DNA of 64,000 nt from a virus. Below are positions 22,335 through 35,531 of the stretch, in pieces. The number at the start of each line of letters is the position of its first letter. Position 1 is the first letter of the stretch. Under the pieces are notes generated by a model. That model made no database searches and was not told the DNA's origin. It saw nothing but the letters and a program-made list of their open reading frames with translations. A program made the translations under genes and the position numbers. The DNA is taken from the IMG/VR virus record IMGVR_UViG_3300037247_000655, positions 32,001-96,000 of that record; one strand, 5' to 3'.

Positions 22335-22715
22335 ATGATACAAATAGATGAAGGAATTAGAAAAGTGATCTATTTCGTAGTTGCTCAAAAAGAACAAGAT
22401 GGAGAATGGAAGTTGTTCGGTCCAGATGAACGTATAGAAAAGGCTGATGAGAAGATCGCCGAATTAGAGAATGACCCCGCGTATTCTCAAGTTGAGCTGG
22501 CTAGGGTGTTGACAGACGAAGATGGGCCAGATTGGCTGCGTGATCCTCCGTCAGTACCATGGAATGTAATATATCCTGATCATTGGCCTTCACACTATAA
22601 CGGTAATTCAGAACCATGTGGCATGATAGAGGGGCCATGTGGTTGTGGGGCCTGGCATTCCATGGATGAAAATTGGGTTAAAGAAATGATTGACCAGTAT
22701 GGTTTGCCTGAGTAA
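22335..22715 (+). CDS. hypothetical protein, C-terminal Cys/His motif
   Basis: C....GPC.CGAWH motif. Confidence 0.6.
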   Translation: MIQIDEGIRKVIYFVVAQKEQDGEWKLFGPDERIEKADEKIAELENDPAYSQVELARVLTDEDGPDWLRDPPSVPWNVIYPDHWPSHYNGNSEPCGMIEGPCGCGAWHSMDENWVKEMIDQYGLPE

Positions 22716-25840: not shown

Positions 25841-26192
25841 GGGGCTGAAAGGTTTCGACAGGGTAAGTGAAGATTATGTGGCGTGCCGAGGTTGTCAGTG
25901 GGCCTCGTTAAACAACTGATAAAAAAGTCTTAAACGGCGAATCCAAGTTCAAATTGGCTGCGTAGCAGCCCGTCAACCAGAAGACGCCTACTATTCTGCA
26001 AGACGACGACCAGTTGGCTAGTGTTTGTTTGATACCTAACCGAATTAACGCGAAACAATAGTTGGGCATGGAAAAACAAAAGCCTGTCGATTGGCGTTTG
26101 TGGCTTCGAGATTTAAACAATCGAATATGCACGTAGAAGGCATGATTTAATCTATTCCTGGACCCGACTTTCGAAAGTCGGCAGCTCCACCA
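25841..26192 (+). ncRNA. ssrA: tmRNA, tag (A)GESKFKLAA
   Basis: GGGGCTG...CAGCTCC-A-CCA acceptor with G3:U70; TTCGAC 5' motif; tag ORF 25936-25965 ending LAA-stop; 352 nt. Confidence 0.93.
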
Positions 26193-26271
26193 GGGCAGTT
26201 AGTTCAATAGGTAGAACGCAACCCAGCAGGACCAAGGGTTGAGGTTGTAGGTTCGAATCCTTCACTGCCCA
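26193..26271 (+). ncRNA. tRNA-like RNA with expanded anticodon loop and no definable anticodon
   Basis: Intact acceptor (GGGCAGT/ACTGCCC), D and T arms; CAACC-(13 nt)-GGTTG anticodon arm. Confidence 0.75.
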
Positions 26272-29571: not shown

Positions 29572-29946
29572 ATGATACAACACTTTAGAATCTGTAATTT
29601 GGACAAGAAAGAGTTCATAGACCCCGCTACGTTCAACGAGCATGCTTCGGGAAGTCGTATTTCTGATTGTGGTACTGATTGGCATAATACTTTGAATTTT
29701 TTAACGACTCTATTGCACGATTGGAGACCAAAGGACCAAAAAGCGATTGCTGGTCATTGGGCTGGGGATAGGGTGGTAGTTGCCAATAGCTGGGGATCTC
29801 CAGAATCTGATGCTCCTATCAATCCAGATGTGAATGACGAACACGCTACTGAACCAGAACATTATAACGCTTATGGATGGTCTAAGCTTCCTGGGTGGAC
29901 TGAACTAACCGCTTCTGTATTGTTCGGTGGATTATGTCCGGAGTAG
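29572..29946 (+). CDS. conserved phage hypothetical protein
   Basis: NLDKKEFI.P and G.WAGDR motifs. Confidence 0.65.
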   Translation: MIQHFRICNLDKKEFIDPATFNEHASGSRISDCGTDWHNTLNFLTTLLHDWRPKDQKAIAGHWAGDRVVVANSWGSPESDAPINPDVNDEHATEPEHYNAYGWSKLPGWTELTASVLFGGLCPE

Positions 29947-30033
29947 GTTTACTAAAAACAAAGGCTTGTCCACTGAGCCCGTCTGATAAATCAGTGGTTT
30001 TTTAGCTCGCCCACCATGTGTGGAAGGAGTAAC

Positions 30034-30066
30034 GGTGTCGTCATTATTGGCGACACTAGATTTTTT
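30034..30066 (+). terminator. intrinsic terminator
   Basis: GGTGTCGTCA-TTAT-TGGCGACACT + T run. Confidence 0.7.
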
Positions 30067-30075
30067 ATTTTTTGT

Positions 30076-30104
30076 GCAACAAATACTGTTGTTCGGGGTA
30101 TAAT
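30076..30104 (+). promoter_or_regulatory. putative early/middle promoter
   Basis: GCAAC-N16-GGTATAAT. Confidence 0.6.
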
Positions 30105-30113
30105 GATATTGTG

Positions 30114-30194
30114 ATGAACATACATAGACAATATTTGGCCACCGGAGTATTCCACCATCTTAATCCATGCGCATTTGGTAGTGGTGCGGGCTAA
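30114..30194 (+). CDS. putative leaderless leader peptide MNIHRQYLATGVFHHLNPCAFGSGAG
   Basis: GTG-ATG at predicted TSS; stop codon lies in the 5' arm of an antiterminator. Confidence 0.55.
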   Translation: MNIHRQYLATGVFHHLNPCAFGSGAG

Positions 30195-30252
30195 GGTCTG
30201 TTTGTTATTTGATAGATCTTTTGGCCCGTGAGAAATACTCACGGGGTTTTTT
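30186..30252 (+). promoter_or_regulatory. putative attenuator (antiterminator 30186-30229 / terminator 30225-30252)
   Basis: Two mutually exclusive hairpins sharing CCCGT; terminator CCCGTGAG-AAATA-CTCACGGG + T6. Confidence 0.6.
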
Positions 30253-30267
30253 ATTGGATATAGGACT

Positions 30268-30555
30268 ATGGCAAAAACTACTGTTGTTAATATTCGTACA
30301 AATAAATATGATGTGTATATCGGCAGGGCGGGATATGGTCATGATGGTTATTTTGGTAATCCTTTCTCGGTAATAAGAGATGGTGGTCGAGAAAACGCTG
30401 TTCGCTTGTATAAGGAATATTTTCTCAATCGTATAAAAATCGATCCAGAATTTGCTCTTAAGGTTCAAGAGTTGAAAGGAAAGAAGCTTGGGTGTTTTTG
30501 TGCTCCTGAGCGATGTCATGGTAATGTGATTATTGAATATTTGGAGAAATTATGA
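30268..30555 (+). CDS. DUF4326 family protein
   Basis: DVYIGR, FGNPF, L.GK.LGCFCAP..CHG. Confidence 0.85.
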   Translation: MAKTTVVNIRTNKYDVYIGRAGYGHDGYFGNPFSVIRDGGRENAVRLYKEYFLNRIKIDPEFALKVQELKGKKLGCFCAPERCHGNVIIEYLEKL

Positions 30556-30899
30556 AAGTGTTAGTGTGTGGTAGTCGTTATTGGATCGATATAGAAATTA
30601 TACTAAAACGACTAGATAAGCTTCCTTGTGATACAATAATAGTAGAAGGAGGATGCTGTGGAGCTGACCTTCTGGCACGTAACGTAGCATTGGAGATCGG
30701 CTTAGAAGTGATTGAGTTTCCAGCATCTTGGAAAAAACATGGTAAAGCTGCCGGTATAATACGAAATTTTAGAATGCTAGAGACAAAACCGGAATTAATT
30801 ATTGCTTTCCATGATAATATGGCTAAGTCAAAAGGGACAAAACATACAGTATCAGAAGCTCGTAAAGCTGGAATTGAAGTTGAGATAATTAGTCATTGA
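30552..30899 (+). CDS. SLOG family protein (DUF2493/YspA-like)
   Basis: MKVLVCGSR, GG..GAD, W..HGKAAG.IRN..M, SKGT. Confidence 0.85.
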   Translation: MKVLVCGSRYWIDIEIILKRLDKLPCDTIIVEGGCCGADLLARNVALEIGLEVIEFPASWKKHGKAAGIIRNFRMLETKPELIIAFHDNMAKSKGTKHTVSEARKAGIEVEIISH

Positions 30900-30900
30900 A

Positions 30901-30976
30901 CGGAATGTAGCTCAGTCTGGTCCAGAGCACTGCGTTTGGGGCGCAGAAGTCGAGAGTTCGAATCTCTCCATTCCGA
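30901..30976 (+). tRNA. tRNA-Pro(TGG)
   Basis: Canonical cloverleaf. Confidence 0.92.
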
Positions 30977-30980
30977 ATCT

Positions 30981-31053
30981 TGCGGGATAGCTCAATTGGT
31001 AGAGCTGGCGGCTGTTAACCGCTGTGTTGCAGGTTCAAGTCCTGCTCCCGCAG
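30981..31053 (+). tRNA. tRNA-Asn(GTT)
   Basis: Canonical cloverleaf. Confidence 0.92.
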
Positions 31054-31066
31054 TTGGGGGTGCTGA

Positions 31067-31258
31067 ATGGAAATTATAGTTGTAGTTGGAATGATGCTTT
31101 GTTTTACATTTTTCGGAATGTGTGTAATACTGAAAGTCATTCATCAGCAATATTTGGATAGAAAACCAAGGCATGTGGATGCTGATATTACCATGGGCGA
31201 CAAGGTTGCCAGAATGAGAAAGACGTATGGAGATATGCTAAAAAGGTTGTCTAAGTAG
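31067..31258 (+). CDS. small membrane protein
   Basis: N-terminal TM helix; GGGGGTG RBS. Confidence 0.55.
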   Translation: MEIIVVVGMMLCFTFFGMCVILKVIHQQYLDRKPRHVDADITMGDKVARMRKTYGDMLKRLSK

Positions 31259-31279
31259 AAACAACCATAAGTAGTTGTC

Positions 31280-31834
31280 TTGGAGATTGGTATGTCATTT
31301 GGTCCATTCAGTATTCATCAAGCCACTGAGGAAGTCGTAGCAACAGGTTGTGATGTGTCTGAACTAGACGTGTTGGTTGTCAATGAAGATGATTGGCTTG
31401 AACTGATTAATGCAAGTCCCATGTTTCAAAATGGAAATTCTGGTGATGGTGATATCAGGGTGTATGGTGTTAAAATTGTAACTAGTCGCCATACAGAACG
31501 AGGAACTATTCTAAAGGTATTTCATAACGATAATCAAATGCTATCTAAAGAGTGGACTTACAAGCGCAGCCATATACCATATGTTCCTACAATGCCTGAA
31601 AATGATTATCTACTTGCAGACAAGGTCGTATCAAGTATTGCTGATGCAGCTAATGGTATGAACAAGTTCAGTACTTCAACCAAACAAGCCGCCGATGCGA
31701 TAAAAAAGTTCGAGTCTGCTACAGCTAATGCATTTGGCATAAATAACAATAATGAAACGACAGAACATACTCCTGATATAAAAAAAGAACAGGAACCAAG
31801 ACATAGTGAGATACGAAAAGTGGAGCTAGGCTAA
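31280..31834 (+). CDS. hypothetical protein resembling an isolated HK97 capsid A-domain
   Basis: DVLVVNEDDWLEL...VYGVKIVTS....GT pattern. Confidence 0.5.
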   Translation: MEIGMSFGPFSIHQATEEVVATGCDVSELDVLVVNEDDWLELINASPMFQNGNSGDGDIRVYGVKIVTSRHTERGTILKVFHNDNQMLSKEWTYKRSHIPYVPTMPENDYLLADKVVSSIADAANGMNKFSTSTKQAADAIKKFESATANAFGINNNNETTEHTPDIKKEQEPRHSEIRKVELG

Positions 31835-31848
31835 AAGGGAGATACAAT

Positions 31849-32043
31849 ATGTTAGAACGTAGAAATCTTACACAAGAAGTTAATGGTAATCAGGCTAAGC
31901 TTGATGACTGCGATCATCCACACAACTTCGAACCGGTTAGACTTGAGGATGGATCTGCCAGCTTCTATCGGTGTTCAAGGTGCGGTGGTTTAGTTGACGC
32001 TTTTAGTGGATTAAGGTATACGCTCAGTGGTAGTTTTGAATAA
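31849..32043 (+). CDS. small zinc-ribbon protein
   Basis: C..PH.F....Y.C..CGG; GGGAG RBS. Confidence 0.6.
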   Translation: MLERRNLTQEVNGNQAKLDDCDHPHNFEPVRLEDGSASFYRCSRCGGLVDAFSGLRYTLSGSFE

Positions 32044-32058
32044 GGATATAACAGTAAA

Positions 32059-32131
32059 GCCCCGGTATCCCAACGGCAGAGGAACGCGGTTTAGAACCGT
32101 GTTAGTGTAGGTTCAAATCCTACTCGGGGCA
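32059..32131 (+). tRNA. tRNA-Leu(TAG), short variable loop
   Basis: Cloverleaf, 73 nt. Confidence 0.85.
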
Positions 32132-32135
32132 TTGT

Positions 32136-32208
32136 GGGCCGGTAACTCAGTGGACAGAGTGGGGATCTTCTACATCCTTAGTCGTAGGTTCGAATCCTAC
32201 TCGGCCTA
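32136..32208 (+). tRNA. tRNA-Arg(TCT)
   Basis: Canonical cloverleaf. Confidence 0.9.
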
Positions 32209-32212
32209 GTCG

Positions 32213-32285
32213 GGGAATGTAGCTCAGTCGGTAGAGCAACGGCCTTTTAAGCCGTGGGTCCTGGGTTCGAGTCCCAGCGTTCCCA
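32213..32285 (+). tRNA. tRNA-Lys(TTT)
   Basis: Canonical cloverleaf. Confidence 0.92.
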
Positions 32286-32293
32286 ATAGGAGT

Positions 32294-32935
32294 ATGGATA
32301 TGAAATTGATCGATTTGGTAGGGAAAAGATTCGGAAGATTGGTTGTCCTGAAAAGAGTCGATGATGATAAAAATAAAAACAGGAGATGGTTATGTCTGTG
32401 TTACTGTGGTAAAAAGAAAATTGTTCATGGCAGCAGCCTTTATGCTGGCAGAACAAAAAGTTGTGGATGTTTACAGAAGGAAATAGTGAGAAAACTGTTC
32501 ACTAAACATGGGCACAGTAAATGTGCAATCTACAACATATGGGCAAGCATGAATCAGAGATGTATCAATCCAAACAACAAAGAATACCACAATTATGGTG
32601 GAAGAGGAATTAATGTCTGTAAACGATGGAGAAATTCGTTTCCTAATTTTTTAAAGGATATGGGAGAACGATCAAATAAAAAATACACACTTGAAAGAAC
32701 TAATAACAATCGGGGATATTGTAAATCTAATTGTGAATGGGCGACATCGAAACAGAATAGCAGGAATAGGCGAAACAACAGGCCATTAACCCATAACGGT
32801 AAGACACAACTTCTAATAGAATGGGCTGAAGAAACCGGGATCGATAGACAAACTATTGCTACAAGAATAGATAGATACGGGTGGTCTATAACAAAGGCTT
32901 TGACGACTCCTATCAGAAAGAAGAAAAATTTATGA
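32294..32935 (+). CDS. HNH-type homing endonuclease (paralog of 22722-23363)
   Basis: Same DL.G.RFGRL..YGGRGI.VC..LER.NN..GY...NC.WAT motifs; both 213 aa. Confidence 0.8.
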   Translation: MDMKLIDLVGKRFGRLVVLKRVDDDKNKNRRWLCLCYCGKKKIVHGSSLYAGRTKSCGCLQKEIVRKLFTKHGHSKCAIYNIWASMNQRCINPNNKEYHNYGGRGINVCKRWRNSFPNFLKDMGERSNKKYTLERTNNNRGYCKSNCEWATSKQNSRNRRNNRPLTHNGKTQLLIEWAEETGIDRQTIATRIDRYGWSITKALTTPIRKKKNL

Positions 32936-33978
32936 TATTCTCCGAAATAGAAAAACGAGATAAGCTAGTTGAAGAAAAATTACTTAGGTGTGATGACCAA
33001 GGTGACTTGCGAGTATATTCCTACACTAATTGGTGCAAAATATGGAATGATATTACCATGAATAGCAGAGGTATTATTTTTAATCGCAAAACCGGTGAAA
33101 TAATTAGTAGGCCATTTCCTAAATTTTTCAATATGGATCAGACAGCCGAGACTCAGGAGAGAAACCTTCCGTGGCAAGACGGATTTAGGATTTTCCAAAA
33201 ATACGATGGATGGCTAGGAATATTATACAGGGATGGAGGACAATACAGAATAGCTACTAGGGGGTCGTTCCAAAGCACAGGGGCATTGTGGGCTACTGAA
33301 TTCCTGAAAGAATATGACCTTACTGGATTGCCAGACGAGGTAACGTTGCTGTTCGAACTTATCTGTCCTGCGACCAAGATCGTCGTCGACTACCATAATA
33401 GGGAAGAATTAGTATTGTTGGCTGCTTACAATAGACATACCGGTGAAGAGTATGGGTGGGAGCAAGTTGAAGCGTGGGGTGACAAGTTCGGATTTGGTGT
33501 AGCTGATTCTTATGATAGTAATCACCTTAAATATTGTCGTTTGCAAATCGAATCTACATCTGGTCTGGAACTTGAGGGTTTTGTCATTAGGTTTAATAAT
33601 GGCTTGCGAGTAAAGATCAAGTCGGACGACTACTTCCGTAGAAGTAAAATGCGGAGCCATTTGACTTTGTTGACAATTTGGGAAAATATGGTGTGCGGAG
33701 AAGTTCCTCAAGAATTCTGGGACGCAATAGATGACGATTATCATGATGCTTTGAGTAAGATAACAGTAGCGATGGAGTCTCGCTATTTCGAGATTCGACA
33801 AGAAATCAATCATCAGTTTGTAAGTATAGTTGACATTCAAGATCGTAAGGAATTTGCTATCGCAGCTCAAAAGTTGAGCCATACACCTGCGATGTTCGCT
33901 CGCCGAGACAAGCAAGAGAAGCGTGTTGACGATTACGTTATGAAATTTATTCGTCCACATAACAATATAATAGGGTAG
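32932..33978 (+). CDS. RNA ligase 1 (T4 Rnl1-like)
   Basis: RGIIF, PFPKFFN, KYDG, ATRGSF, FE, EGFV, KIK motifs; ATGA overlap start. Confidence 0.88.
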   Translation: MIFSEIEKRDKLVEEKLLRCDDQGDLRVYSYTNWCKIWNDITMNSRGIIFNRKTGEIISRPFPKFFNMDQTAETQERNLPWQDGFRIFQKYDGWLGILYRDGGQYRIATRGSFQSTGALWATEFLKEYDLTGLPDEVTLLFELICPATKIVVDYHNREELVLLAAYNRHTGEEYGWEQVEAWGDKFGFGVADSYDSNHLKYCRLQIESTSGLELEGFVIRFNNGLRVKIKSDDYFRRSKMRSHLTLLTIWENMVCGEVPQEFWDAIDDDYHDALSKITVAMESRYFEIRQEINHQFVSIVDIQDRKEFAIAAQKLSHTPAMFARRDKQEKRVDDYVMKFIRPHNNIIG

Positions 33979-33987
33979 TTTGATTTT

Positions 33988-34059
33988 GTCTCTGTAGTGT
34001 TAACGGCAGCACATTAGCCTTCCAAGCTAAAAGTCTCGGTCCGAATCCGAGTAGAGATA
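33988..34059 (+). tRNA. tRNA-Gly(TCC)
   Basis: Cloverleaf; T loop TCCGAAT. Confidence 0.82.
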
Positions 34060-34061
34060 TT

Positions 34062-34159
34062 TGATAGTGCATGGCGATGAGTAGCTCTCGGGGTGTATGG
34101 TTCGAATCCATACGTATAAATTGGCACCTGAATCCGGTTCAAGTCCGGGTCGCTATCAT
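34062..34159 (+). ncRNA. tRNA-like RNA with two T-loop hairpins (or highly atypical tRNA-Ser(CGA))
   Basis: TGATAGTG/CGCTATCA stem; GTATGG-TTCGAAT-CCATAC and TCCGG-TTCAAGT-CCGGG hairpins; no normal D arm. Confidence 0.6.
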
Positions 34160-34162
34160 TAA

Positions 34163-34234
34163 GGGTCTGTAGCTCAGTGGTAGAGCGCTGCCTTGAAGCG
34201 GCAGGCGTCGTTGGTTCGAATCCAACTGGACCCA
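34163..34234 (+). tRNA. tRNA-Phe(GAA)
   Basis: Canonical cloverleaf; G37. Confidence 0.9.
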
Positions 34235-34360
34235 TTGAACAGAAATACCGTCACAACTGAATAAGTGACGGTAAAAGTTCCAGTACACTTCGTAATAAGT
34301 GACTGTGTACAAACATCGGTACTTTGTGATATATGTCGACATTATTGTGTATAATGTATT

Positions 34361-34558
34361 GTGATGTCAGAATTTATTGAAATACATCGTGAAACAGGAA
34401 TTCCATGTTTTGAGTGTGGTGAACGATCTGGTATGGATTGTCCAGGTCGGAGACCAGATGAGGCCACACGTTGTACAGTCTGTCTGGAAAAATTCATGAA
34501 AATCGAGCAGCAACTACAATCATCCCATGATCAACGGTCTAAGGATCGTCTGGGGTAG
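34361..34558 (+). CDS. small CxxC protein
   Basis: Two CxxC motifs; apparently leaderless after GTGTATAA (34347-34354). Confidence 0.5.
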   Translation: MMSEFIEIHRETGIPCFECGERSGMDCPGRRPDEATRCTVCLEKFMKIEQQLQSSHDQRSKDRLG

Positions 34559-34580
34559 ACTGTGTAGACTGAGATACGCA

Positions 34581-34615
34581 GAACCGGATGGTCCAATGGA
34601 CTGTCCGGTTTTTTT
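34581..34615 (+). terminator. intrinsic terminator
   Basis: ACCGGATGGTCC-AAT-GGACTGTCCGGT + T run. Confidence 0.8.
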
Positions 34616-34656
34616 GTGCGCATTGGAAGGTACTGATCCTCTTCCTTCCGTTATTC

Positions 34657-34727
34657 GGCCCTGTGGTGTAATGGTACCCCGCCTGCCTTTGGAGCAGGAG
34701 AACTAAGTTCGATTCTTAGCCGGGCCG
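34657..34727 (+). tRNA. tRNA-Gln(TTG), possibly degenerate
   Basis: Good anticodon and T arms; acceptor mismatch and weak D stem. Confidence 0.7.
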
Positions 34728-34834
34728 TTTTCCTTGCCTTTTGGTGTATAAAAATAAGGTAGATGAATCTGTATCGCCTTCAGTTTTTGTGAACTGGAAT
34801 CTTTACAGCCTTATTTTAAGAAAGAGGTAAAGTT

Positions 34835-35444: not shown

Positions 35445-35531
35445 AATTGCACGTGGTGTATAACCTAGTAGGACAGGGCTCAGGCCTGGATAGACAGTAC
35501 CATTGCAAAATTTGGGACTGGGAGAAATAAG

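Follow-up and report, generated by a model that had tools for sequence, protein, structure and literature searches.

A short leader at positions 30111-30252 of the analysed window (64,000 nucleotides, bases 32001-96000 of the phage genome IMGVR_UViG_3300037247_000655) probably acts as a ribosome-coupled transcription attenuator, opening a block of tRNA, RNA-repair, and ADP-ribose-processing genes when translation slows. We give this reading, which draws in part on folding models, a probability of about 0.72. Eight related phages keep the wiring, one of them in part, and the block therefore probably opens when ribosomes run slowly. The role of phage tRNA genes has long been debated, with codon compensation set against the replacement of tRNAs removed by host defence (PMC10264068). 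A stop that ribosomes would control, conserved ahead of a tRNA array, suggests production on demand when decoding slows, and the switch may double as a reporter: the stress that opens the attenuator would reveal the purpose of the block.

A Family of Related Leaders

The phage genome is complete (165.5 kb, with terminal repeats and 41% G+C). The attenuator, referred to below as the focal copy, sits in an island of ligases, a tmRNA, and tRNA genes, after which come tail chaperone-like and tape-measure-like genes. The phage tmRNA is followed by a tRNA-like element (together 25841-26271 of the window) that has an Rfam tRNA match and is detected by ARAGORN at a relaxed threshold only.

Relatives were recruited through protein homologues, DNA patterns, and alignments; the majority of pattern matches were set aside as gene-end terminators arising by chance. 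Near relatives sharing DUF4326 and tail genes form a family of syntenic uncultured phages. The homologous leader is complete in seven of them (L025, L031, L065, L066, L068, L069, and G001/L154) and partial in one, L020. The phage's own genome has no second copy. BLAST against annotated phages returned no match to the leader, and GTDB genomes gave 0 matches to the leader pattern or to a family marker protein, and thus showed neither a host copy nor a prophage. In viral contigs, single-protein searches reached distant DUF4326/Rnl1 loci only, and a covariance model identified no leader among 80 other loci, mostly from unrelated DUF4326 phages. At gathering and E-value thresholds Rfam had no family for the leader, its weak matches spanning the generic terminator only. 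Likenesses to guanidine-IV, ZTP, c-di-GMP-I, and T-box RNAs, noticed by eye, were rejected, as the key motifs were absent and not conserved.

Promoter and Leader ORF

The unit, all on the plus strand, is insulated by an upstream intrinsic terminator (30034-30073; 10-bp stem at 30034-30057) whose T-run reaches into the upstream T-tract of the promoter, and which is kept with compensatory changes in L025, L031, L065, L068, and L062. The promoter (30076-30104) was assigned, from family copies and matrix score, to a phage-wide GCAACA/GGAACA-17-TATAAT family. The pattern G[CG]AAC[AG]-17-TATAA[TC] occurs 11 times in the phage versus 0.25 expected by chance, and the focal promoter, left out when the scoring matrix was trained, reaches 38 bits and ranks eighth in the genome. 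It does not match TTGACA, and its position is the same in seven homologues. Both elements lie where an earlier, sequence-only reading of this DNA had put them, with the promoter now placed in the 11-copy family. An operator-like inverted repeat in the promoter spacer (30077-30091) is absent from the homologous promoters.

Several minor features were observed around these elements. A non-coding module of two hairpins with varying stems recurs at 29936-30005 of the window and at L025:7393-7462, L068:5706-5770, L069:5525-5598, and L058:8168-8245; it precedes the promoter in the focal phage and L069, and in L025 and L068 it follows the promoter, ahead of the leader ORF. The module has no Rfam match and is a possible small RNA. 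About 30 nt before the upstream terminator (window 30003-30066) show sequence conservation and include a small hairpin in L025, L031, L065, L068, and L062. This segment persists in L062 despite loss of the leader, and may be a small RNA or a processing signal. A sigma-70 region 2-like protein (G000:C1:22750-23295; weak Pfam match) is a candidate factor for one promoter class. At the G000:C1 promoters 22486(-) and 129814(-), an ORF of 8-9 codons starts 6-7 nt past the -10 box, and at 22486(-) the stop codon and the start of the following gene overlap; such short ORFs may be chance occurrences or leaderless coupling.

The leader ORF (30111-30194) begins with GTG at 30111, the predicted 5′ end, followed by ATG at 30114, and stops at a TAA (30192-30194). 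Counted from the ATG (30114-30194), it has 26 codons, 24 of them distinct, and its first 13 residues all differ, just as had been described. The peptide uses 16 amino-acid types (P 0.16), and D, E, K, and W are absent. No Shine-Dalgarno sequence precedes the focal ORF, so leaderless initiation would be needed, probably at 30111, where the G of the GTG is the first purine 6-7 nt past the -10 box. Leaderless starts have a precedent in the family, as a conserved gene starts 3-4 nt after a late -10 box in four relatives. In five homologues, a Shine-Dalgarno sequence (GGAGG/AGGAGG) stands in frame before the start.

Homologous ORFs are 21, 22, 27, 27, 29, 46, and 85 codons long, six length classes among seven full homologues. 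All end at the same place, and the stop (TAA or TAG) lies inside the 5′ arm of the antiterminator in all eight relatives. The family thereby shows how loose such a sensor may be: the ORFs span 21-85 codons and are either leaderless or led by a Shine-Dalgarno sequence, yet share the hairpin at which they end. Across indels, start, frame, and stop stay in register, a pattern that would be hard to explain without translation. The closest pair, L031 and L065, differ by 2 synonymous and 9 non-synonymous codon changes, the eight leader peptides compared have no invariant residue, and the focal ORF is still open after replacement of 14 of 24 codons relative to L065. Since the peptide is without purifying selection, it appears to be the frame and the stop that matter, not the peptide.

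Within the 46-codon leader ORF of L068 (L068:5783-5923), one stretch matches TacA1/DUF1778 antitoxins over their C-terminal part (Pfam E 1e-4, which lies above the curated cut-off). TacA is paired with GNAT toxins, which acetylate charged tRNA. This leader may hold a captured antitoxin fragment, or a mimic of one, within the attenuator.

Antiterminator and Terminator

The last two codons of the ORF, its stop, and the next 8 nt make up the 5′ arm of the antiterminator (30186-30229; 16-17 bp, -23 kcal/mol, ends at 30186/7 and 30228/9). Its 3′ arm includes the 5′ arm of an intrinsic terminator (30225-30252), which has an 8-bp stem (30225-30245) followed by G and U6. Folding agreed with the earlier description of a ~17-bp hairpin that sequesters CCCGT from this terminator; the folding z-score of the focal leader is -3.5. 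The antiterminator forms in nine of nine sequences, at -18 to -28 kcal/mol in the eight that were folded; its pairs were counted anchored on the stop, MAFFT having misaligned the 5′ arm of L069. Across eight sequences, 97% of the cells in the terminator stem are paired, and five of the eight pairs have changed on both sides. None of 500 shuffles showed pairing as high, a control that the relatedness of the sequences inflates. Changes in the 5′ arm of the terminator result in G-U pairs or are compensated in the antiterminator. Related phages had been expected to share the layout, compensatory changes, and codon-diverse leaders: the first two were found in eight relatives (one partial), while the third was not.

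In folding models, antiterminator and terminator are mutually exclusive. Folding also predicts a hairpin just 5′ of the antiterminator (30153-30186), possibly a pause or 1:2-like hairpin, whose pairing partners vary among homologues. In the focal copy only, a segment at 30137-30151 is predicted from duplex energy to pair with the terminator loop and 3′ arm (30234-30248), at -15.0 kcal/mol versus -8.6 in shuffles (P 0.003, post hoc). The read-through fold of the focal copy reaches -44.3 kcal/mol, compared to -38.6 for the best terminator-containing fold, so that the extra helix would favour read-through by 5.7 kcal/mol without a ribosome.

Ribosome Position and the Proposed Mechanism

The effect of a translating ribosome was modelled by masking its footprint codon by codon and folding the RNA just before the terminator 3′ arm emerges, an equilibrium treatment that only approximates a kinetic decision. 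In the focal copy, L025, L031, L068, and L069, the modelled antiterminator forms at all ribosome positions until the last 3-5 codons, and these same five leaders also form it without a ribosome at the decision point. In L065 and L066, a competing upstream helix, comparable to the 1:2 helix of trp-type leaders, lowers antiterminator formation earlier in the model and narrows the window; at the decision point L065 has a 1:2-like helix, L066 has it in part, and the other five lack it. A ribosome on the stop gives the terminator in all modelled leaders with one exception, L068, which has a weak terminator that failed to form in the models. Without a ribosome, the predicted terminator probability is 0.00 in the focal copy versus 0.9-1.0 in five homologues. 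The masked folds agree with the earlier proposal that a stall at almost any codon leads to read-through and arrival at the stop to termination. Because the antiterminator forms until the last codons, the switch would in effect ask whether the ribosome reaches the end of the ORF on time.

In the scheme that follows, RNA polymerase would start near 30111 and a ribosome would initiate at once on the leader ORF, leaderless in the focal copy and Shine-Dalgarno-led in most relatives. A ribosome keeping pace until it is within the last 3-5 codons or on the stop would cover the 5′ arm of the antiterminator, allowing the terminator to form and an RNA of ~140 nt to be released. If the ribosome lagged earlier, the antiterminator would form first and transcription would continue for ~4.3 kb through the tRNA genes and the RNA ligase; in the focal copy, a ribosome that never started would also give read-through. 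The input would be slow or uncoupled translation in general. Coupling between ribosome and polymerase is an assumption of the scheme.

The Putative Gated Block

The first gated gene encodes a DUF4326 protein (30268-30555; Pfam E 1e-21), followed by a SLOG (YAcAr/YspA-like) protein (30552-30899; Pfam E 1e-13), tRNA-Pro(UGG) and tRNA-Asn(GUU) (30901-31054), and three ORFs with no assigned function (63, 184, and 64 aa; 31067-32043). Next come tRNA-Leu(UAG), tRNA-Arg(UCU), and tRNA-Lys(UUU) (32059-32285), a 213-aa ORF (32294-32935) that has no Pfam match and by eye is a candidate HNH-type endonuclease, and an Rnl1-type RNA ligase (32932-33978; Pfam RNA_lig_T4_1 E 6e-21). After the ligase lie tRNA-Gly(UCC), an atypical tRNA-Ser(CGA)-like element, and tRNA-Phe(GAA) (33987-34234); the Ser(CGA)-like element (34071-34157) was called by ARAGORN only and has no Rfam tRNA match. 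These assignments reproduce the DUF4326, SLOG, RNA ligase, and seven tRNA genes listed previously. For DUF4326, a proposed phosphatase of ADP-ribose derivatives, and for viral SLOG proteins, a role in processing such derivatives that originate from host immunity has been proposed (PMC9503650).

The sequence-only reading depended on the cluster having no independent promoter past 30252. No promoter of either phage type was found in 30253-34340, neither one of the phage-wide family nor an exact late-type GTGTATAA box, and the interval contains no terminator. At the end of the unit (34347-34616), a late-type GTGTATAA promoter at 34347 is followed by a 65-aa gene and a strong terminator at ~34581-34616; the gene, at 34361, has a GTG-ATG start as in the focal leader and no Shine-Dalgarno sequence. 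Just past this terminator lies a tRNA-Gln (34656-34728) with no obvious promoter of its own.

Across the family, the first gene past the attenuator's terminator is DUF4326, SLOG, or an ORF inserted ahead of them, and Rnl1 is downstream in four of the eight phages with a full leader. Four relatives without a leader have 0-1 tRNAs in the interval and those with one have 2-16 before the late box, an association among relatives that share ancestry. In L062 (L062:6690-6900) the block is decayed: leader and promoter are lost, DUF4326 and SLOG are fused via internal deletions, and one tRNA is left. Genes for kinase and phosphatase partners of Rnl1 lie at other sites of the phage genome. Pnkp-like end-healing candidates outside the gated unit are an AAA_33 kinase fused to a metallophosphoesterase (G000:C1:144768-145901) and a stand-alone AAA_33 kinase (G000:C1:157157-157624).

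Codon Content and the Likely Natural Trigger

The earlier reading saw the leader as a codon sampler that induces the block only when host defence depletes tRNA. In the focal leader, the run of 13 all-different residues has P about 0.006 (nominal and post hoc) and 24 distinct codons out of 26 have P 0.02-0.08. On all three diversity measures, six homologues are indistinguishable from chance (distinct-codon P 0.16-0.90), and with diversity at the null in these six, codon sampling fails as a selected trait. As for the claimed match to the phage's own tRNAs, codons for five of the eight tRNAs do occur, a coverage that is not significant against 3.5 expected (P 0.19). Similarly, 7 of 21 codons are read by the phage's own tRNAs versus 4.4 in shuffles (P 0.10), and over the measures used the bias is non-significant for the focal leader alone (P 0.10-0.3). 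Cognate codons for tRNA-Lys, tRNA-Leu(UAG), and Ser(CGA) are lacking; the absence of a Lys codon had been noted correctly.

A modest bias emerges when the family is pooled. In six short leaders, the phages' own downstream tRNAs read 46 codons versus 31 expected, and C, D, E, M, and T, amino acids for which no relative has a downstream tRNA, account for 6 codons versus 18.7 expected. Treated as near-independent triplets, this bias has P 0.007-0.065, in leaders that share ancestry, and a swap test of each leader with its own or a relative's tRNA set gave P 0.07, no clear advantage for the own set. These results are suggestive of leaders tuned to the ancestral tRNA set of the family, part of which the focal phage has kept. 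Given this bias towards amino acids of the family's downstream tRNAs, a shortage of charged tRNA, whatever its cause, is the likely natural trigger; starvation, phage demand, and host tRNA nucleases would all be sources. A narrower version, in which the sensor is tuned to its own tRNA array and mainly induces replacement tRNAs, RNA ligase, and ADP-ribose-processing enzymes under a tRNA-attacking defence, is doubtful. Induction only on host defence is unsupported, since the geometry is blind to the difference between tRNA cleavage and other slow-downs, and starvation, antibiotics, ribosome toxins, and failed initiation should also open the switch.

Alternative Readings

T4 Rnl1 repairs tRNA cut by PrrC, and on that precedent the leader could be a codon-sampling sensor selected for host anticodon nucleases, with replacement tRNAs and Rnl1 induced only during defence. 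The modelled geometry permits sensing at almost any codon, the family bias runs to amino acids with downstream tRNAs, Phe codons are confined, among the short leaders, to the focal one, and no other phage of the family has tRNA-Phe downstream, and the gated gene content fits counter-defence (PMC9503650; PMC10264068). We nevertheless consider this unlikely: codon diversity is not conserved, the match of the focal leader to its own tRNAs falls short of significance, and the switch cannot separate tRNA cleavage from starvation. The argument from PrrC is also unsupported, as that precedent concerns tRNA-Lys, for which the leader has no codon, and half of the full-leader phages carry no Rnl1 downstream. 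Slightly less probable is that the attenuator works in the family while the focal copy has decayed and stands mostly open, through loss of the Shine-Dalgarno sequence, poor leaderless translation, and the helix at 30137-30151. Lacking a Shine-Dalgarno sequence and bearing an extra read-through helix, the focal copy may indeed be largely open; by eye it looks like a deletion relative to L065, and its terminator probability without a ribosome departs from that of the five homologues. Against decay, the GTG is in frame and falls precisely where the 5′ end is expected, the ORF has stayed open through the codon replacements separating it from L065, the terminator is intact, and leaderless starts recur in the family.

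Two further readings would take the sensing away from the pace of translation, and both are very improbable. In one, a riboswitch, T-box-like RNA, or protein-controlled antiterminator decides the outcome and the ORF is incidental, and the nucleotides 5′ of the stop are indeed conserved without synonymous change, as an RNA constraint would give. Yet no Rfam match reached the gathering score or a meaningful E-value, a T-box motif is lacking, the region upstream ranges in length from 63 to 255 nt without a conserved fold, and Shine-Dalgarno sequence, start, frame, and stop survive indels. The other, the least probable of all, is nascent-peptide arrest sensing a ligand or factor in the style of TnaC, ErmCL, or SecM. 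Peptides ending in GGDAG in four homologues and SGDAG in a fifth, the recurrence of NP 7-9 codons ahead of the stop, and RAPG in one homologue could be read this way; however, the eight peptides lack any invariant residue and non-synonymous changes dominate, base pairing explains the conserved ending, and a stall there would favour termination, not read-through.

Relation to Known Systems

In the leaders trpL, hisL, and pheL/pheM and the multivalent thrL and ilvL, the uORF stop lies in the 5′ strand of the antiterminator, and antiterminator and terminator are exclusive. The phage leader has the anatomy that defines a leader-ORF attenuator: it shares stop placement and exclusive hairpins with trpL-type leaders, and some homologues add an upstream 1:2-like helix. 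It differs from trp, his, and phe leaders in having no run of one control codon and in gating DUF4326, SLOG, tRNAs, and Rnl1 rather than amino-acid biosynthesis or synthetases. Unlike in trp-type super-attenuation, an untranslated focal leader is predicted to favour read-through.

In its modelled behaviour the attenuator works most like that of whiB7 in mycobacteria, where efficient uORF translation leads to an intrinsic terminator and inefficient translation to an antiterminator; the amino-acid content of that uORF sets broad sensing, and knock-down of tRNA or synthetase induces (10.1101/2023.06.02.543512 = PMC10274678). Both have a uORF of variable length and low conservation in which a stall anywhere gives read-through, for the phage in the model only. 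The whiB7 attenuator is chromosomal, controls a transcription factor instead of a phage block with tRNAs, an RNA ligase, and predicted ADP-ribose-processing enzymes, and has no sequence relation to the phage leader, which is not upstream of whiB7/wblC and thus resembles that attenuator in operation without being a member. In E. coli, the topAI uORF toiL reacts to a range of translation stresses, and stalls at several of its positions are effective (PMC12121999); one uORF with several stall positions is likewise predicted here. Where the phage leader has an intrinsic terminator, toiL acts by RBS occlusion and Rho-dependent termination, and it controls a toxin-antitoxin pair (PMC12121999).

Among systems responding to tRNA damage, RtcR-controlled rtcBA is also an RNA ligase operon induced by tRNA trouble. 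Its regulator, however, is a CARF protein that binds a tRNA fragment and activates initiation, with no uORF or attenuator, and its ligase is RtcB where the phage block has Rnl1 (PMC7790460). In gated gene content the block resembles T4 Rnl1 counter-defence against PrrC (PMC10264068), while differing from the T4 style in that the phage kinase genes lie outside the gated unit. No report of leader ORFs attenuating phage tRNA genes turned up in a literature search that covered few subscription journals, nor did an attenuator described for T4-type tRNA/RNA-ligase counter-defence genes.

Other Observations

Beyond the unit, leaders at 34744-34834 and 35456-35531 of the window follow two late-type GTGTATAA boxes. 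Their sequence and hairpins are conserved in all relatives examined, making them candidate structured RNA regulators of tail genes. Elsewhere, at G000:C1:146746-150000, adjacent ThiF/E1-like and JAB-domain genes are followed by small genes and may form a ubiquitin-like conjugation module.
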